A stretch of DNA of 63,809 nucleotides, counting the filler, from Microthyrium microscopicum (Eukaryota): the NCBI GenBank assembly GCA_010405405.1. It is 8 parts of 5 records of this genome, joined end to end, with 100 filler letters (N's around TTAATTAATTAA, not from the genome) between each part and the next. Parts side by side here need not be neighbours in the genome. Positions count along the whole stretch, not along the records: positions 10,102 to 22,276 come from MU004245.1; 7 more parts are not named here. The stretch is one strand, 5' to 3'. The translations under genes and the position numbers were made by a program. Below, one piece after another: positions 10,810 through 61,200 of the stretch (positions within the stretch are counted from its first letter, which is position 1; the number at the start of each line of letters is the position of its first letter). Below the pieces are notes generated by a model. The model ran no database searches and was not told the DNA's origin. It worked only from the letters and a program-made list of their open reading frames with translations.

Positions 10810-11590
10810 AGGCTATTTATAGGTTTTAGTATAGTTATAAGGTTATATTTTAAATAAAGATATTAGTTTATAAAGAAGCTTACTAAATTTAGTAAGGGAA
10901 TATTCTTTATAAGGACTACTTACTTATAATATCTCTCCTAAAGTAAGCTATATATAGATTTTAGTATAGTTATAGGTATATATTATAAGTAAAGATATTA
11001 ATTTATAGGGAAGCTTACTAAATTTAGTATAGGAATATTCTTTAGAAGAACTATACTTATAATATCTTCCCTTAGGTAGGCTATACGTAGATTTTAGTAT
11101 AGTTATAAAGATATATTATAGGTAAAGATATTAATTTATAAAGAAGCTTACTAAATTTAGTAAGGAAATATTCTCTAAGCTATATATAGATTTTAGTATA
11201 GTTATAAAGATATATTATAAGTAAAGATATTAGTTTATAAGGAAGCTTACTAAGTAAAGGAATATTCTTTAAGCTATATATAGATTTTAGTATAATTATA
11301 GAGACGTATTATAAGTAAAGATATTAGTTTATAAGAAAGCTTACTAAGTAAGAGAATATTCTTTAAGCTATATATAGATTTTAGTATAGTTATAGAGACG
11401 TATTATAGGCAAAGATATTAGTTTATAAGAAAGCTTACTAAGTAAGGAAATATTCTTTAAGCTATATATAGATTTTAGTATAGTTATAAGAATATATTAT
11501 AGGCAAAGATATTAGTTCGTAGGAAAGCTTACTAAATTTAGTAAGAGAATATTCTTTAAGAAGACTATACTTATAATATCTCTCCTAAAA
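10810..11590. repeat. Tandem repeat array, ~7 units of 94-136 bp
   Basis: GCTATATATAGATTTTAGTATAGTTATA.. recurs at ~10812, 10948, 11081, 11179, 11273, 11367 and 11461. Confidence 0.9.
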
Positions 11591-13027
11591 TAGCTTTAAT
11601 AAATAAAATAATACTATACAAGGGTTTTAATTAAGGTAAATACTATAGGGCTCCTTCCTTAAAAGGATAAAAGTATAGTTAGGAATTTATAACTATAGTA
11701 AAGTTTAGTAAAGCTTAGTAGTAGTAGTTCCTTACTAAATTACCTTATAGGTAAGCCTTAGCTATAATATCCCTTTAGTAGTATTATTCCTTTCGTATAT
11801 ATTATTCCTTTAGGTTAGGTATTATATCTTAGTAGTAAGAAGGACGTAATCCCTTACTAAATAATATTATTCTAGTACGTTGTCTTTTTTACTTATAACT
11901 ACCTTACTAACTTCTAATAAGTCTAAGTTACTAAAGACTTCTATCCCTTTAGTAGCAACGTCTTCTAATACTCCTCTACTACTAATTTATATCTCTAAAA
12001 GTAACATTTAGCTTTTAATATAATTACGCAAGCTTTAAGACGTTAATATAGAGTATTTTAGACTTCTCTATATATATTATATAAGGTAAAGTTACGTTTT
12101 AGTAAGTCTATATTCCTTAGCTTATATACTAAACTATTATATATACTATTTAGCTTACTAATTAGTAGAACTACTAATACTAAATATATAAGTATTTCTT
12201 ATAGATACTAATTATCTTATAAAACGTATCTATACTTAAATATCTAAAAGGCTAGCCTACTATTATAAAATACTATACTATAAAGAATATAAAAAAAGTA
12301 AGAAAATAGTATAAGATTAGCGCTAGGATAGTTAGTACTACTATATAATAATCTTATAAAGCTAAATTATATATAAGTTCGTCTTTCCTTATTAAATTAA
12401 GTATAACTAATATAATTAGGTAATAGAATTATAGTAGAGAAGGTTTAGTAAAGTAAGATTTTTTAGTATTAAAGGAAAGTAGAACTATAACTCTAATCTA
12501 GCTATTATATCTAAGTAGCATTAAGCTAGTTTATATAGTAAGTAGTATATATACCTAAGTCTTCTTAAGCTACTTTATAGCTATATTAAGAGCTAAGTAA
12601 GTAAGGAAATAATACTTTTTTAGCTCTTTTATAGAAGAAGGAAAAATTAATTAGCTAATTTAGCTAAATAATTATTATTTTATATAACCTAAAATCGTAT
12701 AGAATTTATAGTAATTATTTAAGCTTATACTACATAGTAGTTTTATATCTATATAGTCTTATTATACTAAATCTTAATAATCTAGTAGTAAGTATTACTT
12801 TAAGAATAACGTTCTACTACTATAAAATAAGTCTTTTTAGTTAAAAGGCTCTCTCTATTTCTTAATTCTATATTTTCTAGTATAGTATACTTCTATAGCT
12901 ATCTAATTTAAATATAAAGCCTACTATGCTATTTCTTCCTTAGGACTATTTAAGAGAATACGTATAGTAAAATACCTTATAGTAAAATACTTAGTATTTT
13001 CCTTATAATGCGCGCTCTATAAATAAC

Positions 13028-13235
13028 TTATTAAAATACGTTAAGGTATCTACCCTTTAATAAGGAGATACCTTATATAAGAGATTAAGATATTATTTAT
13101 TAGAATATATTAAGGTATCTACCCTTTATAAAGAGATACCTTATATAAGAGATTAAGATATTATTTATTAGAATACGTTAAAGTATCTACCTTTTATAAA
13201 GAGATGCCTTATATAAGGAATTAAGATATTATTTT
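13028..13235. repeat. 3 x ~69-bp tandem repeat (also at ~45664-45870)
   Basis: TTATTAGAATACGTTAAGGTATCTACCC...GAGATTAAGATATTATT repeated three times in both copies of the host repeat. Confidence 0.85.
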
Positions 13236-13614
13236 ACTTATTATATATATTTATTTTAGTAAAATAAAAAGAATAACTTATAGTTACTTTTTAAAGTACT
13301 ATTTAATAATTACTTAGCTTTAAGGTAGCTAAAACTAGTAGAGATTACTAGTCTAACCTATCTTTATAACCTAGTCTAGTTTTCTAAATATATAAGTATT
13401 AACTAGCTAGGATAGCTATAAAGCTTTTTTATTACTAAGTAGTATTATTTAATACTATGTATTACTTAAGTAAGTAGAGCTTTCTATAATAAAGCTTATT
13501 AAGTAGTATATTTATACTAATACTTAGTAAAATTACTATAAAGGCATCTTAGTAAATCTTAATTAATATTAAGACCCTTTTAAGGCAATAATATTATAAT
13601 AATCTTTATAAATA

Positions 13615-13708
13615 GGGGGAGTAGTACAGTGGTAGTACTTGTAATCTTGTAGTAGGCCCTACCTGTTTGAGAATCCGCAGAGTACGGGTTTAATTCCCGT
13701 CTCCTCCA
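13615..13708 (+). tRNA. tRNA-Ala-like head (pseudo-tRNA, probable intron retained)
   Basis: Acceptor GGGGGAG/CTCCTCC-A with G3.U70 and A73. D arm GTAC-AGTGGTA-GTAC (A box). T arm ACGGG-TTTAATT-CCCGT (RIPed TTCGATT B box). Anticodon region CT-TGT-A (TGC-A before CpA>TpA) followed by ~21 extra nt. The 5' anticodon stem is damaged. Confidence 0.65.
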
Positions 13709-14828
13709 CTACCCTAAAAAGGTAATTGTTACTTGCTTTTAAAGCTACGTTTACCCCTTTTTAGGGAAGGTTATTTTTCCCTTTTTAGTAGGTGTAGAGG
13801 ACGAGCTATAGCTCTTTTTAATACGTCGCGGAAGGTGCAAAAATTTTTGTATTATATGACTGCTATATATAGCTATAAGATCATCCTTATCAAAGCCCTA
13901 CTAACTAACAATGGACTAGCGTTAAAAATTATATGATTGGAAACTAGTTATAGCTATACGGCACGCAAAGCTATATAAAACAAGCTATAACATTGCTAAA
14001 GCGTAGTAAATTTAGTATGCTGAAGCTAATTCTTTTACGGCTCTTAGCAATTAGATCGGAGGAGCGGCCTTGGCTTAGTAAGTCCGAAATCTAGCCGCAA
14101 TTGGTTAAGGCAAAGATCGGACTGAATGACACGGCAGTAAATCACGGGATCCAGGACACTACGGCTTAGTAAGTACGGTGCCCTTAGGTTGGTATAAACA
14201 CGGCGTTATAGGAATAAGCTGGCAGACTTAGGGGAGGTGACCTAGAATACGCCGGGCTAAAGGACTTGGATTTTGGCTCGAAAGCGAAGTACAGCGTAGA
14301 CGGATAGCTTTTAGCAGACCGTTGGCGCTGCTTCGGACTTGGTATTGCGGCACGAATGGAGGGATCTGATATAATAACAAATAAGGAAGGAATCTCGGCC
14401 CCTTGGGGACGATAACATTGGCAACTTTAGGAACTTGAAGCAGTGGACCGAGCGGAAGAACAATAACCCGTAGCGGAACTAGCCTGGAGAAGTGCTAATG
14501 GGCTGAATACTCCTTGGAATTTAGCTCCCTGATCCGCTAAAGCTTCCGCGGCTTAGGGGGCTAATGGAGCTTAGTAGGGTATAATATTAGCCTTAGCATA
14601 AATTGGTATATAGAACATAATAGCGGGGTTTTCTCTTATGTAGTTAGCGCTTTAGTTTGCTAAACATGTAGGGATTAGCTAAAGCCGGACTAGGCCTTAG
14701 GCCTAGAGTGAGCTAGCTTGGCTAGATTTGGGTAGATTGGCTAATTAGATAAGGGTTTTTACCTGCTTATTAAGAGTAGCGTCTGCATAGCCTATTAGCG
14801 TAGCTGAAAAGATAATAAATAAGATTTA
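13615..14828 (+). mobile_element. tRNA-headed SINE-like retroposon, 1214 bp, with 19-bp target-site duplication
   Basis: Starts exactly at G1 of a tRNA-like head and ends in an AT-rich tail. Flanked by identical ATAATAATCTTTATAAATA (13596-13614 and 14829-14847). Absent from the paralogous copy, which has a single ATAATAATCTTTATAACTA at 46232-46250. Much more GC-rich than its flanks. Confidence 0.85.
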
Positions 14829-17118
14829 ATAATAATCTTTATAAATATTTATACTTTAGTATTTATTATTAGAGATATCTTATTATACTTTATTAGTTAC
14901 CCTTCTCTAATACGCTTTCTAGAGAAGATTAAAATAGTAAGGTATTTTTTATATTAATTTTTTTCTTTTAAAAAAAAGTCTTAATATCTTTAATATTAAT
15001 ACGTTCTATATTAATATATTATATTACACTAAGTTAATTTATAATAATATAGATAGTTTTTAACTATTAATTAATTAGTATTTTAGTTATACTAAATACT
15101 ATAACTACTTATTATTTAGAGATACTATATATAAAATATAAATAATATTACTATCCTTTATTAGTTATAGCCTACTATAGACTACTATCTATAGTAGGCT
15201 TATTAATAATAACTAATTACTTTCTTATTTAGAGATTTTATCTTATAAATAGGCTTACTAGTTATAATAAAGTAATTCTAGTATACCTTTTAAGTCTAAT
15301 TTTATTCTTTCTTTACCTATTTTTTTAATAATACTCTCCTAAGGCTATAGTTCTATATAACCTATTATACTTATATAGTAGTTATACTTTAGGCTAAGGT
15401 ATAGTAATTAGGTTATTTTATATATTAGAAGAGCTTACGTTTTATAATATAGAAGAAAGTTAGTTAAAAACTAGTATGTTATTTAAATACTATTTAAACT
15501 AAATACTAGTAAGTTAGTAATTAGAAGGAAGGTTACCTAAAAACTAAAGCTAACTATTATAATTTTCTACTATAATCTTTAATTAAACTAGGCTATATAA
15601 AGACTTTCTAATATTATTATAGCTTTATTATTATTATATATAGAGATAATTCTATATAGTACCCTATATTCTTAGGAAGCATAAGTACTATATTAGGAAT
15701 AATATAAATAGTATAAGTAGGTTATAGGATTATTAACCTATATAAACTATAGGCTTTTAATTTTACTAAGAGTATTCTTATCTATAAAAAGTAATCCTAC
15801 CTTAATCTAGTATTAATAAGTATATTTAATACGTTAGCCTTAACGTATAATAGAAGTTATACTTTTTACTTTAATATAAAGTATATATTTTTTCTAGGAA
15901 GGTTAAGTTTATTAGGTAAGGACTCTAGGTAGCCTTATTAAGGTAATTTAACTATATTATTTATTAGCTAGTAGTTATACTTTAGATATACCTAACTTTT
16001 CCTTAAATAGAAATCTTAGTATATATTATTAATCTAAAGTAGTAAATATTATTATTAAAAGAATATAGATATAAAAGCCTCTAAAAAAATAGAGAAACTT
16101 TATTATTTAGTATATAATTAGTAGTATATTATGAGAAAAGTAGAGATATACTTTCTATTAATATATACTAGATAATATAAATAGATATTAATAAATATTA
16201 TTATTAATTTATTAATATATAGAGGTAAGCTAGTTAACTACTTCTAAATATTTTTATTTAAGTAACGTTCTTCTTAAGTTAAAAAGTACTAGTCCTTAGT
16301 AAGTAGAAGTAGTAACTATAGTATATATCTAACTACTAGATAATTAAGTAGTAAAAGAGTAGCTTAGAATTAGCTAATATCTAAAAATATATTACTAGCT
16401 ATAGTAGTTACTAACTAATTATTATGCTTATTTATAAAGAGATATTATAAAATCTAAGTAATTAAACTTTTAACTTATAGAGCTTATATATCTATCTACC
16501 TTATTACTTAGTAATAATTAATAACTTTAAGAATAAACTAAGAGTTTATTTAGGATATTTAAGAGTATAGTATAGTAAGCCTATATTTTATATATTATAA
16601 CTAATAGAAATAAAAATATAAAAAGCGTATTATAAGCTATTCTTTACTAGATTTAAGCCTATAACCTATACTTTAAGTAAGTCTTAAATTTACTCTATTA
16701 TCTACTAATCTACTTTAAGATAGTAGGAATTACTTTTAGTATCTCTATTTATTTTAGTAGTTATTTTTTAATATATTTACTTTTACTTATTATTACTACG
16801 CCTAGGATAGTAAAGTAAGTATACTACTTTGCTTGCCCTAGGTGCTTATTATATATTTAGTTCTTTTATCTTTTTAAGAAGTCTTCTATTTATAAAGATA
16901 GTATTATATTAATAGGTTAAAGCTAATTATAAACTTAGGTATATATTATAAGTATTAATTAAAGTATAGCTAGTAGTACTTCTTTATAAAAAGATAGTTA
17001 TATCTAACGTAATAGTATATTTCTACTAAAAACTATATTATATATATACTAATAGAGTACTAGATCCTTATCTACTATATTATTAAATAAGGTAGTACTT
17101 TATATAAAAGAAATATAT

Positions 17119-17331
17119 ATTAGTAACGAAATAACTAATAGGTAAAAGTATATCTACTTCCTTCTACTATTAAAAAGAATACTAACTTAATATTAAATTA
17201 ATAAAAATCCTAATTTAGGTAGGCATTAGCTCCTTTAGAAGCTATATTAGACCCTAATTATTCTCTTAGTTTACCTAGGGGGTAGTTAAGGTCTAATATT
17301 AAAAGATAAAGACTTAAAAATACTAAAGGAA
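17119..17331 (+). repeat. Direct repeat DR1 (~212 bp) with internal ~25-bp-stem hairpin
   Basis: Matches 18242-18453. Contains ATATTAGACCCTAATTATTCTCTTAG-tttac-CTAGGGGGTAGTTAAGGTCTAATAT (17244-17299). Confidence 0.9.
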
Positions 17332-17519
17332 ACTAAAGACTAAAGATATAAACTAAAAAAAAAATATAAACTTAAAGTAAACCTAGATATATTATTAGCA
17401 AACTACTCCTTATAAGTAATAAGTTTATAAGTACTATTAATTTATAGGTAAATTAGGAGTAGGACTAATATATAGGTTAAATAGAAGTAAGACTAATCTA
17501 TAGCTTAGCTAACTAAGAG

Positions 17520-18215
17520 AACTAAAATTAAGAAGGAATTACTTAAGTTAATATATAATAGCTTACAAAATAAGACCTTTACTAGATAAGCTAAGTTGCT
17601 TATACTAATTAATAATAGTTAGTATTAATACCTATAAAAGTAAAAAGAATATTAATCCTACTTATATTACTTCTTACTATAAAGAGATAAAAAAGAGAGA
17701 TAGCTACGTTCCTCTTTTTTATATATAATAATATAGCGACTCTTAATATAGGATTTAGATACGCTAAAACAAAATAGAATCTTTTAGTAATATAATAAAT
17801 AATATTATAATAAGATCCTATTTCTATTATAACGTTATTTATTATATTAGAAATAGGATCTTATTATAATATTATTTATTATATTACTAAAAGATTCTAT
17901 TTCGTTTTAGTGTATCTAAATCCTATATTAAGGGTTACTATATTATTATATATACTATCCCTTAATATTCTACTAAACCTTAATACTTAGCTTATTAAAG
18001 TTTAGTAAGATATATATAGTTAGGAACGTAGCTATCTCTCTTTTTTATCTCTTTATAGTAAGGAGTAATATAAGCAAGACTAATATTCTTTTTACTTTTA
18101 TAGGTATTAATACTAACTATTATTTATTAGCTTAAGCAACTTAGCTTATTTAGTAAAGGTCTAATTTTATAAGCTATTATATATTAACTTAAGTAATTCC
18201 TTTTTAATTTTAGTT
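17520..18215. repeat. Nested inverted repeat (fold-back): 194-bp outer arms, 107-bp inner arms
   Basis: 17520-17713 is the reverse complement of 18022-18215. 17720-17826 is the reverse complement of 17848-17954. The apex is ~21 nt and there is a one-sided bulge at 17955-18021. Confidence 0.92.
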
Positions 18216-18241
18216 TCATTATTCTATATTATAGTAAGAAA

Positions 18242-18453
18242 ATTAGTAATAAGATAACTAATAAGTAAGAGTATATCTACTTCTTCTTAATATTAAAAAA
18301 AATACTAACTTAATATTAGACTAATAAAAATCCTAATTTAGATAAATATTAGCTCCTCTAGAGCTATATTAGACCCTAATTATTCTCTTAGTTTACCTAA
18401 GGGGCAGTTAGGGTCTAATATTAAAAGATAAAGACTTAAAAATACTAGAGGAA
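18242..18453 (+). repeat. Direct repeat DR2 (~212 bp)
   Basis: Second copy of 17119-17331, including the hairpin (..GGGGCAGTTAGGGTCTAATA). Confidence 0.9.
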
Positions 18454-22800: not shown

Positions 22801-25794
22801 ATATTTAGAAAAGGTAGTAGCTATTATAAAGCTAATTATAGTAGTAGTATATAATCTAGAATCCTTTATATACAAAATATATTAGATTTCTTTTTACTTT
22901 TAAATTAGTAGTATATATAATCTAATTATTATATTCCTATTTAAATATATATAGTAGTGTTATATATAACCTAGTAGTTATAATATATATACTATTAAAA
23001 TAGTAGCTATTATATATAATCTAGAATACCCTATAAGTAAAATATATTAGATTTATCTTTATAGTTAAATTAGTAGTAAATATAATCTAATATCCTATTC
23101 TAATTTAAATATATATAGTCGTATTATATATAACCTAGTAGTTACTATATCTAGAATAAATTAGTAGTAGCTATTATAAAGCTACTTATAGTAGTAGTAT
23201 ATATAATCTAGAATACTCTATACGTAAAATATATTAGAACTCTATTTATGTTCAAAGTAGTAGTATTATATATATATAGTAGACGTTCATAAGCTAGAGT
23301 TAGGTTAGTCTATACGTAAAATATTAGACTACTAAAAGTTTATATTTTTAGTAGAGAGATACTTCTATACCTCTATAATACCTCTAATACCTACTTAATA
23401 AATATACTCTAAAGCTTATATTACTTAGGTTAACGTTCTCTATTAAATATATATAATTTTATATAATATAGTACTCTTATTAAGTAGATAGATCTAATAG
23501 TATAAAGTTAGGACTTAGTAAAANNNNNNNNNNAGTAGCTATTATAAAGCTAATTATAGTAGTAGTATATAATCTAGAATCCTTTATATACAAAATATAT
23601 TAGATTTCTTTTTACTTTTAAATTAGTAGTATATATAATCTAATTATTATATTCCTATTTAAATATATATAGTAGTGTTATATATAACCTAGTAGTTATA
23701 ATATATATACTATTAAAATAGTAGCTATTATATATAATCTAGAATACCCTATAAGTAAAATATATTAGATTTATCTTTATAGTTAAATTAGTAGTAAATA
23801 TAATCTAATATCCTATTCTAATTTAAATATATATAGTCGTATTATATATAACCTAGTAGTTACTATATTTAGAATAAATTAGTAGTAGCTATTATAAAGC
23901 TACTTATAGTAGTAGTATATATAATCTAGAATACTCTATACGTAAAATATATTAGAACTCTATTTATGTTCAAAGTAGTAGTATTATATATATATAGTAG
24001 ACGTTCATAAGCTAGAGTTAGGTTAGTCTATACGTAAAATATTAGACTACTAAAAGTTTATATTTTTAGTAGAGAGATACTTCTATACCTCTATAATACC
24101 TCTAATACCTACTTAATAAATATACTCTAAAGCTTATATTACTTAGGTTAACGTTCTCTATTAAATATATATAATTTTATATAATATAGTACTCTTATTA
24201 AGTAGATAGATCTAATAGTATAAAGTTAGGACTTAGTAAAAATTCTATTATTAAAATGCTACGTTAGGAAGACTTAGCAAAGTAACTTACTAATAGAATA
24301 CAACCTCTTCTTTAACTATTAGTAACTATACCTACTAAACTAATATCTAATAGCATAATACTACTCTACTTTATAGCTCTATATATTATTTACTTATACT
24401 TACTCTATCTAAAGTTAACTCTCTATTTAATTCTAATAGTCTTAGCAACTTACTCTAAAGGGCTCTTTAAAAACTATAACCTAGCTTTTTTAATATTCCT
24501 CCTAGGCTATAGTTCTTAAGAAGCTTATAGTAATATCTAGATTGCTAATATACTATACTATACCGTGCTATACTATAATTAAGCTAAAAGTTAATAGTCT
24601 TAAATAAATATATTCTCTTTACGTACTATAGTTACTAACTATTACAATATAAGACTACTAAATAACTAGGTTATAGACTTTAGATAGCTCTTTAGTACCT
24701 TATTATAAGACTAGGATGTAGTAATAATAGGTACTACCCTAATCTATTATAGTAAATATTAAATAATTCGTATATACTAAAGAAGATAGTATAGATAATA
24801 ATTAAGATATAGAAGATAGAGGAAGGATTATATTATTATAGGGTTTATTAATTTCCTTAACTCTAGCTAAACCCTTACCTAACTCTAAACTAAAATATTA
24901 CTAACTTTACTCTTTAATACTACTACTTTTTCCTACCTAGCAATTATAAAAATACTATTCTCCTATATTCCTTAATAATAAACTCTATACGAAAGGAAAC
25001 TACCTATTCTACTATTAATTATACTAGTTAAAGACTTATAATAGTAATATACTACTTATAAAATATAGTAAAACTATAATAAATATATATATAACTAGCA
25101 CTTTAATAAATTAGCCCTTAGAGGAATAAGTAAGTTTCTAAAAGGACTATAAGATATATTAAAGTAGATGTACTTAATAGAGCTTAACATTAATACTAAT
25201 CTTATTATACTAACTAACTAAAGTAACTTAGAATATATCCTAGAAAAACTTAGAGAGTTATTAAGTAATAAGCTCTTCTATTCTATTAATAATACTACTT
25301 TATATATACTCTATATTCTTCTACTATGCAAACCTTCTTTAGGTCTATTATACTTTTAGTATTAATACTACTTAGATATAAATGCTTAGACTTATAAAGC
25401 GTTAAAGCGTATTAAGATATAAGAGTATAATAATAAGGATAAATTTACTAGTCTATATAAGATTAGTAAGTATATTAAAGTAGTTCCTATTACTTAGTAT
25501 GAAATCACCTTATATTATCCTTACCTAATAATTATCTAGTAAATTATATTAGCTACGAAATTCTATATGCCCTTACTATTTACTTACTATATAACTTTAG
25601 CACTATATCTTGCTAGATATTAATAACTTCTATAGTATATTTTCGTTTTAGGACTTACATTACCTCTTTAATATTAATAAAGTTATATACGCTAATTATA
25701 GAGGAATTTAGCTATTTAATTTTAATATATCCTAATATCTACTTATAATTACTAAGATTACCTCTACTTAAAAGTACTACGAAAGTATATAAAA

Positions 25795-34299: not shown

Positions 34300-37200
34300 T
34301 TATACTATAGTAACTAACTCTATACTTAAGCTAAATAACTTCCCTTTTATTACTATTGCTATTTATTCTTTACTTACTTATAATATAAGATACAAACATA
34401 ATAATAATAATTACTATAAAGAAGGAAATATAGATAATATATAATTTAAGGATAATATACTATATAATAACGTAGTAAATTACGTTAAAAATATAAATAG
34501 ATTATACTTAAGTAGTAGTAATAATAAATTCTTATACTCTACTAAATATATAGACAGCCTAGATATCTCCTTATTCTAATATAGTAACGATAAAGAATCT
34601 TATAGTAATAAGTTGTAGTCTATACTACTAATAGAAATAACTTATATTAATAATATTATAGTAGATGCTCTTAATCCTAACGTTTATATAGCTACTTAAG
34701 ATAATACTTAGTAGAGAGGCATCCTACATTATTAAATAATACTTCATCCTTTACTTAAAGATTATTAGTTTATATTATAAGAAATAGACGACTTTTTATT
34801 CTAATATTATAATTATTTATCTAACTATCCTAATACTAGCTATTTATTAGTTAGTAGTTATTTATTATCTTTATCTACCCTACTAGATTTACTTTCTCTA
34901 GTAGTAGACGTAATTAAGCTAAACTATACTTATTCTTTAAGGTTAATATTTAAAGAGTAGAATAGCTTTATATCCTTATAATTCCTAAATAGTATAATAG
35001 TAAAAAAGAATATAATATAAGCTATTTAAGTACATAAGTCCTATATACTATTAACTAAGAACTAACACAAACTATAATATTTAATATTTTATAATAAGGA
35101 ATAGATACTACGCCTTAGTCTTAAATAATTATAGGTTCTAAACCTAAATAAGATTTATATATATAGAGTCTACGATTAAGATAGTACTATACTTTATCTA
35201 TCTTTACTAGCTATATATAAAGATAGAATTAATATCTTAATGTTTCTTAGGTACTTTAAAACTAATTATATTAAATATAGATATTCTATTTATATTTTTA
35301 ATTAAGAATATAATATTATCTAGCCTATTCTAAACCTATATAAGTATAAGAATATTTATCTTAGAGTTCTTATTTAGGAAGGTAGGTTATTATTAGAATT
35401 TAGTATCTATATTTATTTTCTTAATTTAATATCCTATAGTAGAGAGTAGTATCTTTATATAAAATAACTTAAATAGTAGTACTAATATATCCTATTTCTA
35501 GCTATTAGGGATGTTTGTCTAATTAACGTTCTATAGCATATACTCTTTAATAAATATTATGTATATATAATAGCTATAGTATAATAGGAAACAAGAAACT
35601 AAGATAACCTAAAGCTAGGCCTAGCTAATATATTCTTTATAATTTAAGGTAAATACTTTAAATCTCTATAGGATTATATACTAGACTATAGTAAAAGGTT
35701 CTAAGGCGTAAACTTAAGCTAAAAGGATGCTACTATTAAAAATTCTAAAGATAAATAAGCTAATATTATAACCTATCTATTAGATTAGATAATAAGTTTA
35801 AATATATTTAAGAATTCTATTCTTATACTTATATTACATAATAGCAAACTATTATAGAAAGCTAATAACCTTATCTAAGGATTTAGTAACTACTAAGAGT
35901 ATATAAATTACTATTTTAACTTTTTGTTTATTAGACTATACTATTTATATATTAATCTTATATATAAGGATATATTATTTCGTTAAGATACTTATAGTAA
36001 TAAACTTCCTACTAAGGATATTACACTAGTATTAAAATAAGAATATAGTAAAAATTAGATTTAGTATTATAATAATCTTAATACTAGTAATAAGATTTAA
36101 CCTAAATAGTTTTTATAGTTTCTTACTAATAAGGCAAGTAGTTATAAGTTTTACTATAAGCCTAATAGTCTAATATATAAGGCTAGCCTAGTAAATAGAA
36201 AAGTATATATAATTTATAAAGAAATCTTTAGTACTATTTATAAGAGTCTTATACTATTCTAATATAATTATCTAGAGCAACTTAGTTCGTACTATATAGA
36301 TAATTTTAGACCTACTAGATAATAATATAACTAGATTAAAAAATACTATATATCTAAGTAACCTATATAAATAACTATCTATTAGTTATAGAGGGCTACT
36401 ACTTAAGTATATACTAGCTATTAAGCTAGTAAGAGTAGTACGTTTAGAGTTTATATTAAGCGCTAATTTTAAGTTAATATCCTTTATAATTAGTATAAGT
36501 AATCTATACAAAATAGGAACCTTTAAGAAAATAATAAGAATGCTACATTATATTTTAAGGTAATCTATAGTAATTAAATTTATAATATATATACTTATAT
36601 CTATACTAAATATAGCTTACTAATACTAATCCTAACGTCTTAGAATATTCTCTATATTAGATACTTTTTACGTCTAAAGTTAACTACTTTATTTAGAAAT
36701 CTATAGAAAGATAGCTATAGCTAATTCTTTTTACTACCTAATATTTACTACTACTAATAATTAACTTGTATTATAAATAAGCTACTAATATAGCATAATA
36801 GTAATACTTAGCTACTATAGTTATTTATATTTAAATACTTAAGTTAATTTTTAGTAGTCTAGTTATAAGAGATAGTAGTATATAGCGTAAATATATTACT
36901 ATAGCTTAACTTAATCTTAAAAAATCTAAGATATATTTTTAACTAGGACTTAATAGATATACTATTATAAAACAATATAGAACGATTTAGCTAAAATAAT
37001 TATATTTTATCTAAAGTAATATAATTCTAGTACTATAACCTAAAATTACTTAAGTACTTATAGTCCTTAACTTATTATATCTAGCCTTAACCTTTTAATA
37101 ATTAGTCATTTAGTCCTAGGCTCTTTATTTATTACATACTACTTATTAGTATAAAAAAGAAACTAAGATTAAGATTACTCTTATCTAAGCTACTTTTCTA

Positions 37201-38397
37201 TATAACTCTTTTAAGTATACTTAGACTGCCTAGTTTATTAGAGAACTTTATTATTAAGTATATACGTACTAAGTATTTTATAAGTACTATATATTATATT
37301 AAAATAAGATAAAATTACTAAAACAACCTAAAGTAGAAGCTATTAACCCTTAGAGAAACTACTCTTTAGATTTCTTTTTATAAAAGATTAGACGTCTAAT
37401 AGATAAAGAAGCTATAGGACTAAGAGGACTTAATATTTCTATTATTTCTTAACTAATTTAGTATAGACTTATAGTTATAGNNNNNNNNNNNTAAATTTAT
37501 AATATATATACTTATATCTATACTAAATATAGCTTACTAATACTAATCCTAACGTTTTAAGATATTCTTTATATTAGATACTTTTTATATCTAAAGTTAA
37601 CTACTTTATTTAAAAATCTATAAAAAGATAGCTATAGCTAATTCTCTTTACTACCTAATATTTACTACTACTAATAATTAACTTATATTATAAATAAGCT
37701 ACTAATATAGTATAATAGTAATACTTAGCTACTATAGTTATTTATATTTAAATACTTAAGTCTATTTTTAGTAGTCTAGTTATAAGAAATAGTAGTATAT
37801 AGCATAAATATATTACTATAGCTTAACTTAACCTTAAAAAATCTAAGATATATTTCTAACTAAGACTTAATAAATATACTATTATAAAATAATATAAAAT
37901 AATTTAGCTAAAATAATTATATTTTATCTAGAGTAATATAATTCTAGTACTATAACCTAAAATTACTTAAGTACTTATAGTCCTTAACTTATTATACCTA
38001 GCCTTAACTTTTTAATAACTAGTTATTTAGTCTTAAGCTCTTTATTTATTATATACTACTTATTAGTATAAGAAAGAAACTAAGATTAAAATTACTCTTA
38101 TTTAAGCTACTTTTCTATATAACTCTTTTAAATATACTTAGACTACTTAGTTTATTAAAGAACTTTATTATTAAGTATATACGTACTAAGTATTTTATAA
38201 GTACTATATATTATATTAAAATAAGATAAAATTACTAAAATAATTTAAAGCAAAAGCTATTAATCCTTAGAGAAACTACTCTCTAGATTTCTTCTTATAA
38301 AAGATTAGATATCTAATAGATAAAGAGGCTATAAGACTAAGAAGACTTAATATTTCTATTATTTCTTAACTAATTTAGTATAGACTTATAGTTATAG
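34300..38397 (+). pseudogene. Large RIPed ORF of unknown function (3' part duplicated across gap)
   Basis: Protein-like de-RIPed text: RVYD.DS; HLG; IHFP; W...ILFPAI; QH.P; HDGK; FLTDEASG; AGLVNGKAY..HKEIF; PF....LEQL; TFGVRIERRF. Frame continuity over the whole span was not verified. Confidence 0.5.
36575..38397 (+). repeat. 906-bp direct duplication across an 11-N gap
   Basis: 36575-37480 matches 37492-38397, differing by scattered transitions. Confidence 0.9.
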
Positions 38398-39111: not shown

Positions 39112-42100
39112 NTAATAAATTATTAATAAGTATCTTAATAAGAATAAGTTAAATATAACTAATTATATTAAAAGTATATAGTTAAAAGATATTATTCTTC
39201 TTAACGTACTTATAATATTCTTAATATACTTTTTTACTAACTTAGAGTTATATATAGAAGAATAAGAGCTAAGTAGCTAGTAAGATAATTATATAAATAT
39301 ACTTACTAAAATTCTAAAATAGATTAAAGAACTAGTTAGTATACTTAAACCTTAACTAACTAAAAACTAGATTTAGTATATAATTAATTAATTAGCTAAT
39401 AAAATACCTATATTAGATTCTAATTATATAAATAGTATACTATAAATAAAGATTAACTATTAGTAAATAGCCTCTATTTAAAACTCTAGCACGAAATTAG
39501 AAAACTTATTATTAACTATACTAGGCGTAAAAAGGCATACCTAATAGATATAAATTACTATTTATTTCTATAGAGCTTAAGACTAAGTTAATATAGCCTT
39601 AGTAGTAAATAAGAGTTTAGTATATACGTAATAAAAATAAATATACGTTTAGATATAAAAACGTAGATAGATTTTTATAATATAAGATATATAACTATTT
39701 CTATATAATTTAAATTATTAACTTATTTATATATAAGTTATAATAAACTATTATATTATTCTATAAAATACCTTCTAGACCTAATTTCCTTAATATCCTT
39801 TACTTTATTAAACCTACCTCTATAGCTTTTATTATTTAATGTAATATCTTTTATATAGTACTTATAAATAGAAACCTTAACAAAGCCCTTAAAATTATAA
39901 TAGAATTAGTAGTATAGGTATTTATTATAGAAGTTAAGTAAATAATACTTAGTAAGCCTAGATAGAAGCTATCTAGATTTAAATAAACATAGTTAGTATA
40001 TAGAATATAGAGTAGTACTACTATATACTAGTACTATATAGAGACTATCCTTTATAGTAAGACCTTTCGCCTTAAGAAATAATATACTTATAAGTACTAT
40101 AGACTTAATGCTTCCTTAATTAATTATATATACTAGTCTCTTTAGCACGCTAATTTTAACGTAGCTAATAAAGTATATTTAATTAATATTCTAGGATCTA
40201 AAGGTTAATATAAGTAGCCTAGCTTTATTAATTAGCTCTTTTTAGACTTTTAAATATAGAGAGATTATCTAGGTCCTTTATTTAAAGTCTATTCTAGTTA
40301 ATATTTTCCTACTATACTTAAGAAAGTTAATAGGATGCCTAATTAAAAGGATTTTAGCTACTATAAATTTATTAAGATACTATATAGTATATTAAATAAC
40401 TAGAAACTAACTAGCCTTAACAAGTAGAATAAACTTAATATATAGTTAAGAGATACTATACTTTAAAAGGTATCTATTATACTAGATATTATACCTATTT
40501 ATAATAGTAGTAAGTTCCTTAAAATTATAAAGCTTAGTAAAGAAGCTAAGAAAACTAGATAATATATTCCTTATTCTTTTTAATTAGAGCTATTTTTTGC
40601 TATATATATTAACGTTCTTAATACTAACGCTTTTACTTTACTAAAAGAGACATACAATAACTTCTATATTATTATAGCTAGCAGATTAAATTAAGTAGTA
40701 ACTAACGCTATAATTACTAAGGCTAACAAAGCTAGTATACTTTTAGTTACTAATCTAAGACTTTTATCTTAACTAGAAGTAGTTAGTTTTAGTTAGAAGG
40801 ATTAGTATCTTTATTATTATTATAGTATATAATACTTATATAGTATATATAGGAGATTAGTACTATATAGTAAGTATCTTTAGTACTATAAAGCTATTAA
40901 TAATTTTATTCTTAGCTTAGACTACTAGTAAGATCTTTTTATAGCTAAACTAATTATATATCTATATACTATAAGTAATGTCTAATCTAGATAAGCTATA
41001 TAGTTTATTAAAATAAGTAACAATAATAACCTATTAAGAATAGTATTATCTATTAGTAGAAGCTATAGAGAATTAGATAACAATAAACCTAAGTTAACAT
41101 TTCCTAGAGATATAGATAATACATTAATAAATTTTAATAATACTAATTAATAAGATTCTAAGTCTACCTATTTAAACTAGACTTAATATAATAAAGTAGG
41201 TTACTAGCTAGGATTAGATAACTAAAATTATAAATATTTAATAGCTAGTAATTTATAGTATATATAATAGAACTTAGTTTAATAAGCATCTAGATTAGTA
41301 TTTATAACGAAAGAAGTAGAAAATATTATATTAATAAAAGATAATTTATATCTAACTAGTAACGAAAGGTTTACTAGTAAAGAAAGGTTTACTAAATTTA
41401 GTATACCTCTATTAGATTCGTAGATAGTCTATCATAGCTAATCTACTTAAAAGATTAATAATATTTAAATACCTAATAAAAACGTATTAAAATAACTAAA
41501 GCGTTAAAAATAATATACGTAAAAGAAAGGTAAGTTTATATATAATATATACGTAAATAGTATAGAATACTAAAATTAAATATTCTTTATATTAAGTATA
41601 AAATTTATTCTAAACTTTTAATATAGAACTCTAATTTACTATAAAGCAAATATATAACCTAAAATAATAACTTATATATATTTACTACTACTATATTAAG
41701 AGTTTAAAGTTAATAGAATATATAAAGCTAAACTCTCTAAAACTACTTCTTATCCCTATTATTAATATACTTAATACAAGTATTTTTAATTCCTTATTCT
41801 TCTAAAGTCTTAGGCAAAACCCTTTACTCCTTTATACTACTATAGACTTAATACTTCCTACTCTTACTTTTAAGTTAAATTATATACTAGATAACTAAAC
41901 GTAACCCTAAATACAAATATCTTTAATAATAAGTAGAGACTACTTAAGCTTAGTAAGAATAGCTTAGGTAGTACTTTTAATAAATAGAGGTTATATACCT
42001 AGATAAAATAATTATTTAAAATAAAGAAATTTACTTAATAAGAATTATAATACTAATAGTCATAATATTACATAGAAGCTATTTAAATTTATAACCCTAA

Positions 42101-42830
42101 AAAATAGTATTTCTAGTTAATATCTTAATAATACCTATTACTAGAGTAATAGAATAACTATAAGTATTAATAGACGAGATTAAGCTATTTTACTATTATT
42201 AGCTATAAGATTAGACAAATCTAGTTAGATAAAAATATATATAGATAAAAATTAATAACCTACTTATTAAATAATAGGGTAATAGTAAAATATAATATCT
42301 AGTAGCTTTTGCGTAGTAGTAGAAATATTAGCTAATATATTACGACTAGTACTAATGTAAAAGGAACCTAAAAGATTTACTACTAAATAGGCTATATTAG
42401 AAATAATTAATAGTAAGATAAATAATAACGTAGAAATACGTAGTATAAAGCAATAAAAGACTAATTATACTTACTTCTTTATAAGAGATAACTAATAACT
42501 AATAAATATATAGTAAGTCTAACTAACTAGTAGAACTAGGTTATTATATAACTTAAGGAAGTAAAGTTTAACTATAATAATACTATAATAATATTACGCT
42601 TAAAGGACATACTTCTAGATATCTTCTCTTATAAATAGGTCTTAAAAGTTTTAAAATATTAGCAAATTATTTAAGAGTAGTAAATATAAAGATATATTAG
42701 ACGTTAATAACGTAGGTAATAAAACTAAACTAGAAAATAGTAAAAGTAGCATTAAGCTAAGTAGTAAAGAAGAGAGTAGACTAAATAGTATAGAAGAATA
42801 TAAAGTCTCTAATAATTTTATAGTAGATAT
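39112..42830 (-). pseudogene. Probable RIPed coding region(s) of unknown function
   Basis: Minus strand gives plausible de-RIPed protein text (YFMERYNSL, FRAGVLDGGRLPTVDLH, S/P-rich stretch near 42700). No family recognised. Confidence 0.3.
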
Positions 42831-44456
42831 NNNNNNNNNNTAGATAACTAAAATTATAAATATCTAATAGCTAGTAATTTATAGTATATATAATAGGACT
42901 TAGTCTAATAAGTATCTAGATTAGTACTTATAATAAAAGAAGTAGAAAATATTATATTAATAAAAGATAATTTATATTTAATTAGTAATAAAAGGTTTAC
43001 TAGTAAAGAAAGGTTTACTAAATCTAGTATACTTCTATTAGATTTATAGATAGTTTATTATAGCTAATCTACTTAAAAGATTAATAATATTTAAATATCT
43101 AATAAAGACGTATTAAAATAACTAAGGCACTAAAAATAATATATATAAAAGAAAGATAAGTTTATATATAATATATATATAAATAGTATAGAATACTAAA
43201 ATTAAATATTCTTTATATTAAGTATAAAATTTATTTTAAACTTTTAATATAGAACTCTAATTTACTATAAAGTAAATATATAACCTAAAATAATAATTTA
43301 TATATATTTACTACTACTATATTAAGAGTTTAAAGTTAATAGAATATATAAAGCTAAACTCCCTAAAACTACCTTCTATCCCTATTACTAATATACTTAA
43401 TATAAGTATTTTTAATTCCTTATTTCTCTAAAGTCTTAAGTAAAACTCTTTACTCTCTTATATTACTATAGACTTAATACTTTCTAGTTTTATCTTTAAG
43501 TTAAATTATATACTAGATAACTAAATATAATCCTAAGTATAAATATCTTTAATAATAAGTAGAAACTATATAGGCTTAGTAAGAATAGCTTAGGTAGTGC
43601 TTTTAATAAATAGAAATTATATATCTAGACAAAATAATTATTTAAAATAAGGAAATTTACTTAATAAGAATTATAATACTAGTAGTTATAATATTATATA
43701 GAAGCTATTTAAATTTATAATCCTAAAAAATAGTATTTTTAGTTAATATCCTAATAATATATATTACTAAAATAATAGGATAACTATAAGTATTAATAGA
43801 TAAAATTAAGCTATTTTACTATTATTAGTTATAAGAATAAGTAAATCTAGTTAGATAAAGGTATATATAAGTAAAAATTAATAACCTACTTATTAGATAA
43901 TAGAGTAATAGCAAAATATAATATTTAGTAGCTTTTACGTAGTAGTAGAAATATTAGCTAATATATTATAACTAGTACTAATGTAAAAAAAACCTAAAAG
44001 ATTTACTACTAAATAAGCTATATTAGAAATAGTTAATAGCAAAATAAATAATAATATAAAAATATATAGTATAAAGTAATAGAAGACTAATTATACTTAC
44101 TTCCTTATAAGAAATAACTAATAACTAATAAATATATAGTAAGTCTAACTAATTAGTAGAACTAAGTTATTATATAACTTAAGAAAGTAAAGTTTAACTA
44201 TAATAATACTATAATAATATTACGCTTAAAGAATATACTTCTAGGTATCTTCTTCTATAAATAGGTCTTAAAAGTTTTAAAATATTAGTAAATTACTTAA
44301 AAGTAGTAAATATAAAAATATATTAAACGTTAATAACGTAGGTAATAAAACTAAACTAAAAGATAGTAAAAGTAGCATTAAGCTAAGTAGTAAAGAAGAG
44401 AGTAGACTAAATAGTATAGAAAAATATAAAGTCTTTAATAATTTTATAGTAAGTAT
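41215..44456 (+). repeat. 1616-bp direct duplication across a 10-N gap
   Basis: 41215-42830 matches 42841-44456 with many transition differences. Confidence 0.9.
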
Positions 44457-44929: not shown

Positions 44930-47102
44930 TATAAAAAAAGTAAAAAAATAGCGTAAGATTAGTATTAAGATAGTTAGTACTATTATATAATAATTCTATA
45001 GAGCTAAATTATATATAAGTTTATCTTCTCTTATTAAATTAAGTATAACTAATACAATTAGGCAATAGAATTATAATAGAAAAGATTTAGTAAAATAAGA
45101 TTTTTTAGTATTAAGGAAGAGTAGGACTATAACTCTAATCTAGCTATTATATCTAAGTAGCACTAAGCTAGTTTATATAGTAAGTAGTACGCGTATCTAA
45201 GTCTTCTTAAGCTACTCTATAGCTATGTCTAGAATTAAGTTAATAAAGAAATAATTTTTTTTTAGCTATTTTATAAAAAAAGGAAAAAATATTATTTATA
45301 ATTATCTAAAAAATTTTATATAACTTAAAATTATATAGAATTTATAGTAATTATTTAAGCTTATACTATATAGTAGTTTTATACTTATATAGTCTTACTA
45401 TACTAAATCTTAATAATTTAATAGTAAGTATTACTTTAGAAATAACGTCCTACTACTATAGAGTAAGTCTTTTTAGTTAAAAGGCTCTCTCTATTTCTTA
45501 ATCTTATATTCTCTAATATAGTATACTTCTATAGCCGTCTAATTTAAATATAAAGCCTACTATACTATTCTTTCCTTAGAACTACTTAAGAAAATACGTA
45601 TAGTAAAATACCTTATAGTAAAATACTTAGTATTTTTCTTATAATATACGCTCTATAGATAACTTATTAGAATATATTAAGATATCTACTCTTTAATAAG
45701 GAGATGCCTTATATAAGGGATTAAGATATTATTTATTAAAATATATTAAGGTATCTACCCTTTATAAGAAAATACTTTATATAAGGGATTAAAATATTAT
45801 TTATTAGAATACATTAAAGTATCTATTTTTTATAAAGAGATACCTTATATAAGAAATTAAGATATTATTTTACTTATTATATATATTTATTTTAGTAAAA
45901 TAAAAAGAATAACTTATAGTTACTTTTTAAAGTACTATTTAATAATTACTTAGCTTTAAGGTAGCTAAAACTAGTAGATATTACTAGTCTAACCTATCTC
46001 TATAACCTAGTCTAGTTTTCTAAATATATAGGTATTAACTAGCTAGAATAGCTATAAAGCCTTTCTATTACTAAGTAGTATTATTTAATACTATATATTA
46101 CTTAAGTAAGTAGAACTTTCTATAATAAAGCTTATTAAGTAGTATATTTATACTAATACTTAGTAAAATTACTATAAGAGCATCTTAATAGATCTTAATT
46201 AATATTAGAACTCTTTTAAGATAATAATATTATAATAATCTTTATAACTATTTATACTTTAGTATTTATTATTAGAAATATTTTATTATACTTCGTTAAT
46301 TACTCTTCTCTAATATACTTTTTAAAGAAAATTAAAATAGTAAGATATTTTTTATATTAATTTTTTTCTTTTAAAAAAAAGTCTTAATATCTTTAACGTT
46401 AATACGTTCTATATTAATATATTATATTACGTTAAATTAATTTATAATAATATAAATAGTTTTTAACTATTAATTAATTAGTATTTTAGTTATACTAAAT
46501 ACTATAACTACTTACTACTTAGAGATACTATATATAGAATATAAATAATATTACTACTCTTTATTAGTTATAGCCTACTATAGACTACTATCTATAATAG
46601 GCTTATTAATAATAACTAATTACCTCCTTATTTAGAGATTTTATCTTATAAATAGGCTTACTAGTTATAATAAAGTAATTCTAGTATACCTTTTAAGTCT
46701 AATTTTATTTTTTCTTTACCTATTTTTCTAATAATACTCTCCTAAGGCTATAATTCTATATAACCTATTATACTTACGTAGTAGTTATACTTTAAGTTAG
46801 GGTATAGTAATTAGGTTATTCTATATATTAGAGGAGCTTACGTTTTATAATATAGAGGAAAGTTAGTTAAAAACTAGTATATTATTTAAATACTATCTAA
46901 ACTAAATACTAGTAAGTTAGCAATTAAGAGGAAGGTTACTTAAAAACTAAAGCTAACTACTATAATTTTTTACTATAATTTTTAATTAAACTAGGCTATA
47001 TAAAGACTTTCTAATATTATTATAGCCTTATTATTATTATATATAGAGATAATTCTACATAATACCTTATATCCTTAAGAAGTATAAGTACTATATTAAG
47101 AA
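44930..47102 (+). repeat. Interspersed repeat copy B (contains the empty SINE target site at 46232-46250)
   Basis: Collinear with 12288-13614 joined directly to 14848-15699. Confidence 0.9.
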
Positions 47103-58215: not shown

Positions 58216-61200
58216 TAACTAATATACTTATTATAAAGAAATATAAGAAAAACTTATACTTAGTAGTTCTTTAAGCCTATAATTATCTTAATAAAGAGGT
58301 TATATAATTAATTTAGAATAATTATATTAATTTCTAAACTTAGCTAGCTAAACTAGACTAATATAAACCTATATAAACTTTTATAAAATAATAGACTCTT
58401 AAACTCCTTAGTCTATTTATTAAGAAATATTATAAAGCCTTTTAGAGCCTTTTAACTATTATAATAAGGAAAAAGACTTCTTAAGAATACTTTAATAAGC
58501 TTATACCTCTCTTTTATAAATATAAGATTAATAATATATTAATTTACTTATTATTCTTTAGTAATAAACTATTTACTTATCTTAGAAATAATATAATTTT
58601 TAACTTAAACTATATAGTTAAGATAGCTAAAGAAGCCTTATCTTAATATATTTTAAAGTACTTAAAACCTATTAGTAACTAGAAAATACTAACTATTTTT
58701 AAAAAAGATACTAAAGATAGTAAATCCTCTAAATAGTATTTAACGTTTATAAATCTAGAAGATAAGACTTAATAAAGTTCTTAAAGAGATAAGTTAAAGA
58801 AGTTTAAACTAAGCTCTTTTAATAGAGCTTTAAAGCTAAATAAATTAAAAGATAATATAATACCTAAAGTTAAATAGCTATTCCTTAGTAACTCTAATAA
58901 AGATAAGTACTAAAACTATACTAAGGTAAGCTATATAGCTTATAACTACTCTAACTTAAAGCTAAAGAGAATTAAGGAAAAAGACTAAGCTATAAGGTAG
59001 CTAACTAAGACCTTATAGCTTCTATTATAAATAATCTAGTTTTTAACCTTTTTAGTAACTTTTATAAAGTTATTATTACTTAAGTTTTAGAGGTAGTAAA
59101 GAATAAAAGGATTCTAGATAAAGAAGTATATTAATTAAAGAAATTATACTAAATTATTCTATAAAGAACTACTTAGAATTAAGTAAGCTAAAATTATATA
59201 CTATAGAGTATAATAATTAATAATAAAGCTTATTTTAATATTATAAACTATATCTTAGCTAAGAAGCTTTAATTAGAGATATATTATCTTTTAGAGAAGT
59301 TAGCTAAGTACCTAAATAATATATTTATAATTATTTATAGAGTAATAATTATTAAAATAATAATAATTAACTTTAATAAAATTCTAAAGACTAATAAGAT
59401 ATTATTTTATATTATAAACTTATTATACTATATAATTATTATAAAGATACCTTAGCTTAAGGACTAGAATCTCTTACTAGACTTTAAGGCTAAGACTTTA
59501 TCCTTTATTTATCTAGAAGATAACTACTATAGTAAGATTAGCTTTATCTTTCTAGAAGAACTATTTTAATTAGATTAAGATAAATCTACTTAGCTTTTTA
59601 AGTATTTAATAGGGTTATTAAACTATATTAGCTTATAAGACTTATTATATTACTATAAAGAGTTTATAAAGGCTTTTAATAAAGATAAAGTATAAGATTT
59701 AATAGAATATAGTCTATAAAACCTAGCTATTAACTTTAAGCTAGGTATAACTATACTTTATTAACTTATTTATAGCTTATTAGAAGTAAAACTAGTTATT
59801 CTACATAAATACCTTAAGAGAAATCTTAAGAAGAAATTTATTTATAAATCTTAATCTTTTACTAAAGCTCTAATTATCTTTATAAAAAAGAAGGATAGTA
59901 CCTTATATTTATATATAAACTATAAAGACTTAAATAATATTATAATTAAGGACTACTATACTTTATTACTAATTAAAGAATTATTAGACTAACTATTAAA
60001 AGCTAAACTTTTTATAAGCTTAAATCTTTATAAAGTATACTATTATATTTATATTTATACTAATAATAAGTAAAAAATAATATTCTAAACTAAATATAAG
60101 TTCTTTAAGTACTAAGTAATATTTTTTAGGCTTACTAATATTTCTACTATTTTTTAAGTATATATTAACTAAGCCCTATATAGCTTTATTAATATAACTT
60201 ATATTATCTACTTTAATAATATTCTTATCTTCTCTAAGAATAAAGAAGATTATATTAAATATATAAAAGAGGTACTTAAAAGACTTATTAAGTTTAAGTT
60301 ATACGCTAAGCTATTAAAATATAGCTTCTATATAAACTAAACTAAGTACCTTAAGTATATTATAACTCTAAATAATACTATAGTAAAATTAGAATAAATT
60401 ATAATAGTTATAGATTAGCTAACGCTATATAATATATATTAAATAAGAAAGTTTATTAACTTTATAAATTACTATTAACGTTTTATTACTAACTTCTTTT
60501 ATATTATTTCTTTATTAAACTCTTTAACTAAGAAGCTTTTAGGGTAAGTTTTAAAAGACTAATAGCTATATAATAAGAAATTAGTTTCTATTAATTTCTT
60601 TTTTAAAGCTATTTAATCTTTTAATAACTTAAAGACTATTTTTATATATATACTAATCTTTACTTACTATAATTTTATATTAAAGACTTATCTAAAAATA
60701 GATACTTCTAAATAAATAATTTATAATATTTTAAGCTAAAAGTAAACTAAGCTAGGCTAAGAAAACTAATAGTAACTTATAGCGTTTTATTTAAGAAAGC
60801 TATTAAGACCTAAGAGTTACTATAAAACTTTATAGTAAAAGTTCTTAGCTATTATTAACTCTATAAGAATCTTTTATAAGTACTTATATAGTATTCTAAA
60901 GTTCTTAGTCTTAATAGATTATATAAACCTCTATTTATTTAATACGTTTTAAAATATCTTTACTATATATATAAAATAAATAGATTTCTTTACTAAGTTT
61001 AAGTTTAATATTAAGTACTATTTAGGGAAAATAAACTTTATAAATAAACCTTTATAAAGACTAAACTATATCTTCTTAAGTAATATAGAATAAAAAAGAA
61101 CTATAAATACCTTATTAAATTTTATTTAAGATAAACTATAACTATCTAAGGCTTCTAAGCCTAATAAAGACTTAACTAAGTTTATTACTATCTTAGTTAT

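Follow-up and report, generated by a model that had tools for sequence, protein, structure and literature searches.

A 1.2-kb retroposon family with a tRNA-like head and a LINE-like tail in the genome of Microthyrium microscopicum

Results

The window analysed here, a stretch of 63,809 nucleotides from Microthyrium microscopicum (GCA_010405405.1), is stitched together from several contigs with N gaps and contains at positions 13615-14828 an insert of 1214 bp. As a copy that repeat-induced point mutation (RIP) has damaged, it very probably belongs to a family of non-autonomous retroposons of about 1.2 kb, that is, to a long, SINE2-like short interspersed nuclear element (SINE) that carries a tail derived from a long interspersed nuclear element (LINE) and was mobilised by the latter. 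The insert has a GC content of 42.8% in surrounding DNA of about 20% GC. It is bordered on both sides by ATAATAATCTTTATAAATA (identity 19/19), an exact 19-bp target site duplication (TSD). Because the first eight bases of the TSD double as the (ATA)n tail of the element, its length includes an overlap between tail and target. The chance of a match to ATAATAATCTTTATAAATA at a fixed place is about 7e-9 when the flank composition is taken into account. The flanks of the insert, 12288-13614 (90%) and 14818-15699 (93%), align to 44930-47102, and there ATAATAATCTTTATAAATA occurs only once, with one mismatch and without insert. A preliminary description of this DNA had reported a GC-richer insert of this size that starts at tRNA G1 within a perfect TSD, and a single target without insert at 46232-46250; sequence and alignment bear this out. 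It had further presented the filled and the empty site as sharing one window, which is without positional meaning because the window is stitched from separate contigs (filled site on G000:C16, empty site on C20).

A 701-bp query spanning the empty site gave 29 matches, of which 21 run uninterrupted over the whole query and only the one on C16 is split, so that one of 22 host-repeat copies is filled. At a variable base of the target both TSD copies have A and all 12 examined empty sites have C; the duplication was therefore made from the C16 locus's own target. The filled and the empty site belong to members of a host-repeat family with 22 or more copies, a situation in which an ‘empty’ site might have arisen by deletion between short repeats, or the insert might have been spread by segmental duplication or together with its host repeat. 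This explanation is refuted by the single filled copy, by the TSD base that is absent from the empty sites and by the unrelated flanks of the other copies of the insert, and can practically be dismissed. The polarity assumed in the preliminary description, insertion and not deletion in the second copy, thus stands.

A genome search with the insert, in which 40 of 51 candidates were scored, gave 40 matches: 16 full-length copies (the window copy included), five partial copies and 19 tails only. The full-length copies measure 1183-1215 bp at a GC content of 27-55%, and the 5′ ends of all 16 are found at tRNA G1 within one base. An exact TSD of 13-19 bp, own to each copy, borders 15 of them; that of L017 has 19 bp with two mismatches, and the exact TSD of L006, which lies in a TTA microsatellite, is uninformative. 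When the 32 flanks were compared, only one pair shared 62 bp and the rest differed. Copies with identical 5′ ends and different TSDs had been expected in the preliminary description, which had named a single copy, or flanks common to the copies, as outcomes that would contradict a SINE; the expected copies exist, and neither of the contrary outcomes was observed. Two 5′-truncated members were also found, one of 175 bp with a 14-bp TSD in gene-rich DNA (L021, G000:C13:1105508-1105678), the other starting at about +169 with a 10-bp TSD and inserted in the 5′ end of the partner LINE described below (L009). The tails of the SINE copies are short (ATA/ACA/TA)n or A-rich stretches that usually overlap the TSD. 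Exact head and tail patterns had no match in metagenome contigs, a result of little weight. We also considered a tRNA-bearing long terminal repeat (LTR) element of the TRIMp3/Helenus type, for which two LTRs, a primer binding site, a polypurine tract and a TSD of 4-5 bp are given in PMC10886601; it was rejected on the lack of an internal terminal repeat in self-BLAST and on the TSDs of 13-19 bp.

Two observations on individual insertions may be added. At the locus of L009 (G000:C4:1712703-1716721), where the SINE sits in the first bases of the LINE, a second LINE 3′ end faces it on the opposite strand. L122, on the minus strand of gene-rich DNA at G000:C2:840106-840156, is an old insertion that consists of the tail only (about 51 bp, 92% identity).

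The head of the insert matches the Rfam tRNA family RF00005 from the first base on, with 43.8 bits (E 1.3e-7) for the window copy and 52.5 bits for L003, the least mutated copy. L003 and L004 show perfect pairing in the acceptor, D and T stems, and intact copies have perfect A and B boxes. The ‘Pol III head’ of the preliminary description, i.e. one with the A and B boxes of an RNA polymerase III (Pol III) promoter in a predicted cloverleaf, thus holds as a feature of the sequence. An insert of about 22-25 nt occupies the anticodon loop in L003 and L004, and CCA follows directly after the discriminator; it is kept in five of the 16 copies (L003, L004, L008, L010 and L011) and reads CTA in the other 11. 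ARAGORN found the head when introns were allowed and no tRNA in the window in its default bacterial mode. Among 19 tRNA-like loci the best likeness of the head was to an intron-bearing tRNA-Ala(TGC) gene (score 79 vs 66), and the likeness extends to the intron (P 0.013, post hoc). The alanine assignment is suggestive only, because the tRNA family search of the genome covered the tRNA set only in part, with 63 of 1518 candidates scored, and no direct source gene was found; a search with the A-box/B-box pattern yielded three SINE copies and one tRNA-Ala(TGC) gene. In the window copy a RIP change of C70 to T (13617/13705) produces an accidental G3-U70 pair, the alanine identity pair, at a place where intact copies have G3-C70.

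Other tRNA-like sequences were encountered in these searches. L123 and L124 (G000:C2:2380529 and C2:2648535) belong to another repeat, at least 3.6 kb of which is shared, with a RIP-damaged tRNA-like gene whose 3′ half is duplicated, with T runs behind and CCCTAA repeats in front. In gene-rich DNA, L092/L125 (G000:C3:2794724-2794796) is an intron-bearing tRNA-like sequence whose acceptor stem is broken; CCCTAACCCT comes next.

The body of the element is non-coding. All 20 genome matches of the body were SINE copies and neither a gene nor a LINE was matched, Rfam gave nothing above the gathering scores for the body, and the longest stop-to-stop frame wholly within the L004 copy has 113 aa. The copies are mosaic: among 26 shared transversion sites, some of which fall in a block that is hard to align, 127 of 325 pairs failed the four-gamete test, and failures rise with distance from 17% within 100 columns to 45% beyond (0 of 2000 permutations as extreme). 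Shared transversions are absent from the first 100 and from the last 180 alignment columns, and 24 lie in the middle. These data bear on the idea that the insert is a one-off tRNA-mRNA or tRNA-LINE chimera, produced by a template switch or as a processed pseudogene, and not a self-propagating family. The retained intron and the CCA would fit a captured pre-tRNA, and the last 57-80 bp are LINE-derived, so this part of the chimera suggested in the preliminary description stood. The middle, however, matches SINE copies only, and a single event is refuted by the 16 full copies, which have a common 5′ end, separate TSDs and widely differing RIP loads (GC 27-55%). We consider a one-off chimera highly improbable; a chimera may account for how the family arose, though not for what it is now.

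The last 57 nt of the SINE show 88-95% identity to the 3′-terminal sequence of copies of a resident 7.1-kb family, with a weaker likeness over 79 nt, and AATAAA stands 14 nt before the SINE end. A LINE-like 3′ end had been predicted in the preliminary description. The search for the 7.1-kb family (23 of 69 candidates scored) yielded at least 11 full-length copies among at least 28 matches, with direct repeats of 13-20 bp at, or close to, the two ends, and with 5′-truncated members, two of which have clear TSDs. A profile of 15 X-read copies of the reverse transcriptase (RT) region matched four proteins (E 4e-43 to 5e-53), all four with RVT_1 and three with Exo_endo_phos_2, and residues 48-894 of one of these proteins could be aligned within one reading frame of a LINE copy. 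Judged from these protein matches, the family is a LINE with a predicted apurinic/apyrimidinic (APE) endonuclease and RT in its second open reading frame (ORF2). A genome search with PF14529 gave no candidate and a PDB profile search nothing. Three long intact RT frames (L050, L051, L052) were rejected as partner, being of LTR type and without the tail; these LTR-retrotransposon copies keep long open pol frames in a heavily RIP-affected genome, and no LINE ORF2 does. By eye, a spacing like that of Cys/His knuckles was seen in ORF1 of the LINE and at the end of ORF2, and in elements such as L056 and L106 about 1.9 kb follow the ORF2 end, an unusually long 3′ region.

The SINE copies have undergone RIP: the great majority of their differences from L003 are C>T and G>A changes in CpA and CpG contexts, and the window copy differs from L003 by 153 C>T/G>A changes, 12 reverse transitions and eight transversions. 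In the window copy RIP has turned the B box, which in intact copies reads GGTTCGATTCC, into GGTTTAATTCC, and the CCA behind the head into CTA; with this damage the copy is probably transcriptionally dead. L003, at 55% GC, lies antisense within a RIP-degraded Gypsy pol, with RIP-type DNA of at least 5.9 and at least 2.8 kb on the two sides, and thus arrived after its host DNA had been mutated. The lightly mutated L004 (G000:C2:747251-751441) is inserted in exon 3 of a HET-domain gene and disrupts it: the frame is open over 427 codons without the insert and meets a stop at codon 51 with it.

The L004 region is represented in six runs from three studies, none recorded as RNA, of which four were examined. 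We judge run X4 to be RNA because both introns (GT..AG) of the HET gene are spliced out in it; depth is zero over the first 420 bases. A contig of this run leads from the HET exons into the SINE as far as +437, through all T tracts and with the tRNA intron retained; RNA polymerase II (Pol II) therefore reads through at L004. A second X4 contig represents the L003 allele, with agreement at 33 of 33 diagnostic sites and with its 39 substitutions and two gaps reproduced. That RNA comes from a copy inside RIP-dead DNA suggests a promoter of the SINE's own. Run X6 (0.14 share) contained low-depth pieces only. Two further RNA matches in the L004 search were traced: at L004:1835 an unrelated gene shares 23 nt by chance, and the match at 2639 comes from the old tail-only insertion L122, which is present in X4. 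A 1514-nt contig of X4 carries the downstream flank of L021, which is thus probably part of a neighbouring gene's transcript.

The features of the locus are collected in Table 1. The host repeat, which in tblastn matched neither Gypsy pol nor LINE ORF2, extends over about 6.2 kb in L130 (further copies at 11432-17330 and 44930-47102 of the window and in L134); a TCTTAGTAAGGGC-like motif near one end and its reverse complement near the other hint at a DNA transposon. Elsewhere in the window, a RIP-degraded Gypsy-type pol fragment lies at 59768-61036, and 17101-18453 contains a large imperfect inverted repeat (17520-18215) with 231-bp direct repeats on both sides. Long tandem near-duplicates across small N gaps at 36575-38397, 41215-44451 and 22816-24241 (94%, 92% and 99.9% identical) are possibly scaffolding overlaps.

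Table 1 Features of the SINE insertion and its host repeat (positions in the window)
Feature	Position	Strand	Basis
RIP-degraded host repeat split by the SINE; at least 22 copies in the family; ends approximate	11432..17330	.	genome matches
5′ copy of the 19-bp TSD	13596..13614	+	sequence identity, empty-site comparison
tRNA-derived head, cloverleaf, G1 to discriminator A	13615..13708	+	Rfam RF00005, ARAGORN, alignment
A box (D arm)	13622..13634	+	Rfam/sequence
Retained intron-like insert in the anticodon loop; borders approximate	13651..13673	+	ARAGORN, alignment
B box, RIP-damaged (GGTTTAATTCC)	13687..13697	+	copy comparison
CCA position after the discriminator (CTA in the window copy)	13709..13711	+	copy alignment
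Structured T-tract block; T5 at 13758, 13782, 13815 and 13844, two right behind short hairpins	13712..13850	+	copy comparison, folding
Non-coding body; variable, mosaic part of the family	13851..14748	+	genome search, Rfam, frames
Tail common with the 7.1-kb LINE, 57-58 bp; weaker likeness back to ~14749; AATAAA at 14814-14819	14771..14828	+	alignment
3′ copy of the TSD; first bases double as (ATA)n tail	14829..14847	+	sequence identity
Empty target in the second host copy (contig C20)	46232..46250	+	alignment

Discussion

The family combines the features of a SINE2: a tRNA-derived head with A and B boxes, dispersed copies with variable TSDs, a non-coding body and a tail shared with a LINE. 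LINE-mediated, target-primed retrotransposition, as put forward in the preliminary description, is supported by the TSDs, the separate flanks and the LINE tail. The head would have been born from an end-matured, unspliced, CCA-bearing pre-tRNA, probably for alanine. RNase P could recognise the intact cloverleaf and fix the start of the RNA at G1, and the long trailer may be protected against RNase Z by the CCA; CCA is stated to be an RNase Z anti-determinant in PMC1885648, although the assay presented there saw no CCA effect. Following the standard SINE/LINE model (PMC3747384), the ORF2 protein of the LINE would bind the common tail on the SINE RNA. Presumably it nicks the target at an A/T-rich site able to pair with the short (ACA/ATA)n end, and then reverse-transcribes the SINE RNA in place.

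Several points weigh against a LINE-mobilised SINE2. At 1183-1215 bp the element exceeds the customary range, SINEs being quoted at 100-700 bp in PMC10886601, and the length limit is described as customary, not mechanistic, in PMC4494074. No source tRNA gene was found in the genome, all 13 matches of the head query being SINE copies. T5 runs at +144, +168, +201 and +228 follow the head in all three least mutated copies and are therefore not products of RIP. Pfam alone detected nothing in nine whole-element frames of the LINE and RVT_1 in only two of 15 LINE RT regions. All 36 ORF2 matches in the assembly carry stops, so that no intact partner LINE that could mobilise the SINE is found in it. 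A stem-loop in the tail is unsupported (z 0.13; two-sided change in one of 14 pairs, in RIP-damaged copies). The RNA evidence comes from one run of one study, whose contigs give no start, strand or level. As the partner LINE is dead in the assembly, the SINE family is stranded in this strain.

How the RNA is made is a separate question. In budding yeast T5 is a minimal, weak Pol III terminator, and an adjoining hairpin strengthens short T tracts (10.1101/2021.08.27.457903). Two of the T5 runs stand directly behind hairpins, the fold of the block has a z of -3.05, and in 20000 base shuffles none reached four T5 within 153 nt, in a region chosen post hoc. For leaky Pol III read-through of these four tracts we regard the chances as evenly balanced. 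A tentative alternative, to which we give a lesser though substantial chance, is transcription by Pol II from an own or a host promoter with tRNA-type trimming; the head would then act chiefly as a signal for RNA processing, and the T-rich block, which contains TCACGTGA and CCAAT-type motifs, would be a Pol II promoter inside the element. This alternative competes on transcription only, not on LINE-driven mobility. Besides the four T5 tracts themselves, it draws on the spliced transcript that passes all of them at L004, on the AATAAA, on the A-rich tails of L004 and of the LINE fragment L117, and on TCACGTGA at +236 and TCACATGA followed by ATTGG at +312 to +323, which we take to be promoter motifs. 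These candidate motifs are short, however, most tails are short tandem repeats and not poly(A), and T6 is absent from the three least mutated copies, as chance predicts at such a length. Eg-R1 (10.1101/242271) and SINEU (PMC4494074) are precedents for a retroposon probably made by Pol II, but the intact copies of the present family have perfect A and B boxes and a cloverleaf, whereas the 5′ end of Eg-R1 is without them. Some other source of the RNA is rather improbable.

A LINE-mobilised SINE2 could also make wider use of its head. It is conceivable, albeit unlikely, that the pre-tRNA mimic acts as a processing cassette and not as a promoter only: in a long RNA, possibly Pol II-made and polyadenylated, RNase P would define the exact 5′ end and the encoded CCA would keep RNase Z away, the LINE would copy this RNA via the 57-nt tail, and the element, transcribed inside RIP-silenced DNA, would have outlived its partner.

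The window copy itself is a damaged passenger. L003 represents a near-intact, transcribed copy that can be used for questions on the 5′ end and the polymerase, and its perfect Pol III-type head in front of four potential terminators puts the definition of a SINE to the test. Compared with its 7-kb helper, the small parasite is better at escaping RIP, and it continues to break genes, as seen in the HET-domain gene at L004.

Comparison with known elements

The mechanism belongs to a known type, a tRNA SINE with a LINE tail; the departures are the length of 1.2 kb, the four T5 tracts behind the head and the mosaic copies. The literature searched, with most subscription papers outside it, contained no fungal tRNA-headed SINE of 1.2 kb, and the element is indeed unusually long, as the preliminary description had claimed, in comparison to fungal SINEs of 472-900 bp (PMC5063351, PMC10648671). 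Fungal SINE/LINE pairs on record are few: Table 1 of PMC3747384 lists two, Mg-SINE with MGL/MGR583 in Magnaporthe and SINE2-1_BG with Tad1-24_BG in Blumeria. By their description both resemble the present pair in the tRNA head and the tail of a resident LINE. Mg-SINE has 472 bp (PMC5063351), in contrast to the 1.2 kb, the intron-like insert and the T5 cluster of the Microthyrium element. AfuSINE2 of Aspergillus fumigatus, Foxy, mgsr1 and nrs1 are likewise low-copy SINEs of filamentous ascomycetes, all shorter by the lengths quoted in PMC5063351 (at most 900 bp); the same source marks a tRNA-related CCA end in AfuSINE2, and one tail that is Tad-like.

Long non-coding retroposons are also represented by Eg-R1 and Egh24 of Blumeria, with 657 and 884 bp (PMC10648671, Table 1). 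Eg-R1, thought to be made by Pol II, shares internal T stretches and AAUAAA with the Microthyrium SINE (10.1101/242271) but lacks A and B boxes at its 5′ end, whereas the cloverleaf of the latter is complete from +1 on and its LINE tail has been demonstrated. Outside the fungi, SINEU of crocodilians similarly combines a small-RNA head with LINE mobilisation and internal oligo-T that argues against Pol III (PMC4494074); it differs in its U1/U2 snRNA head, its Tx1 partner and its length, which is mostly below 500 bp.

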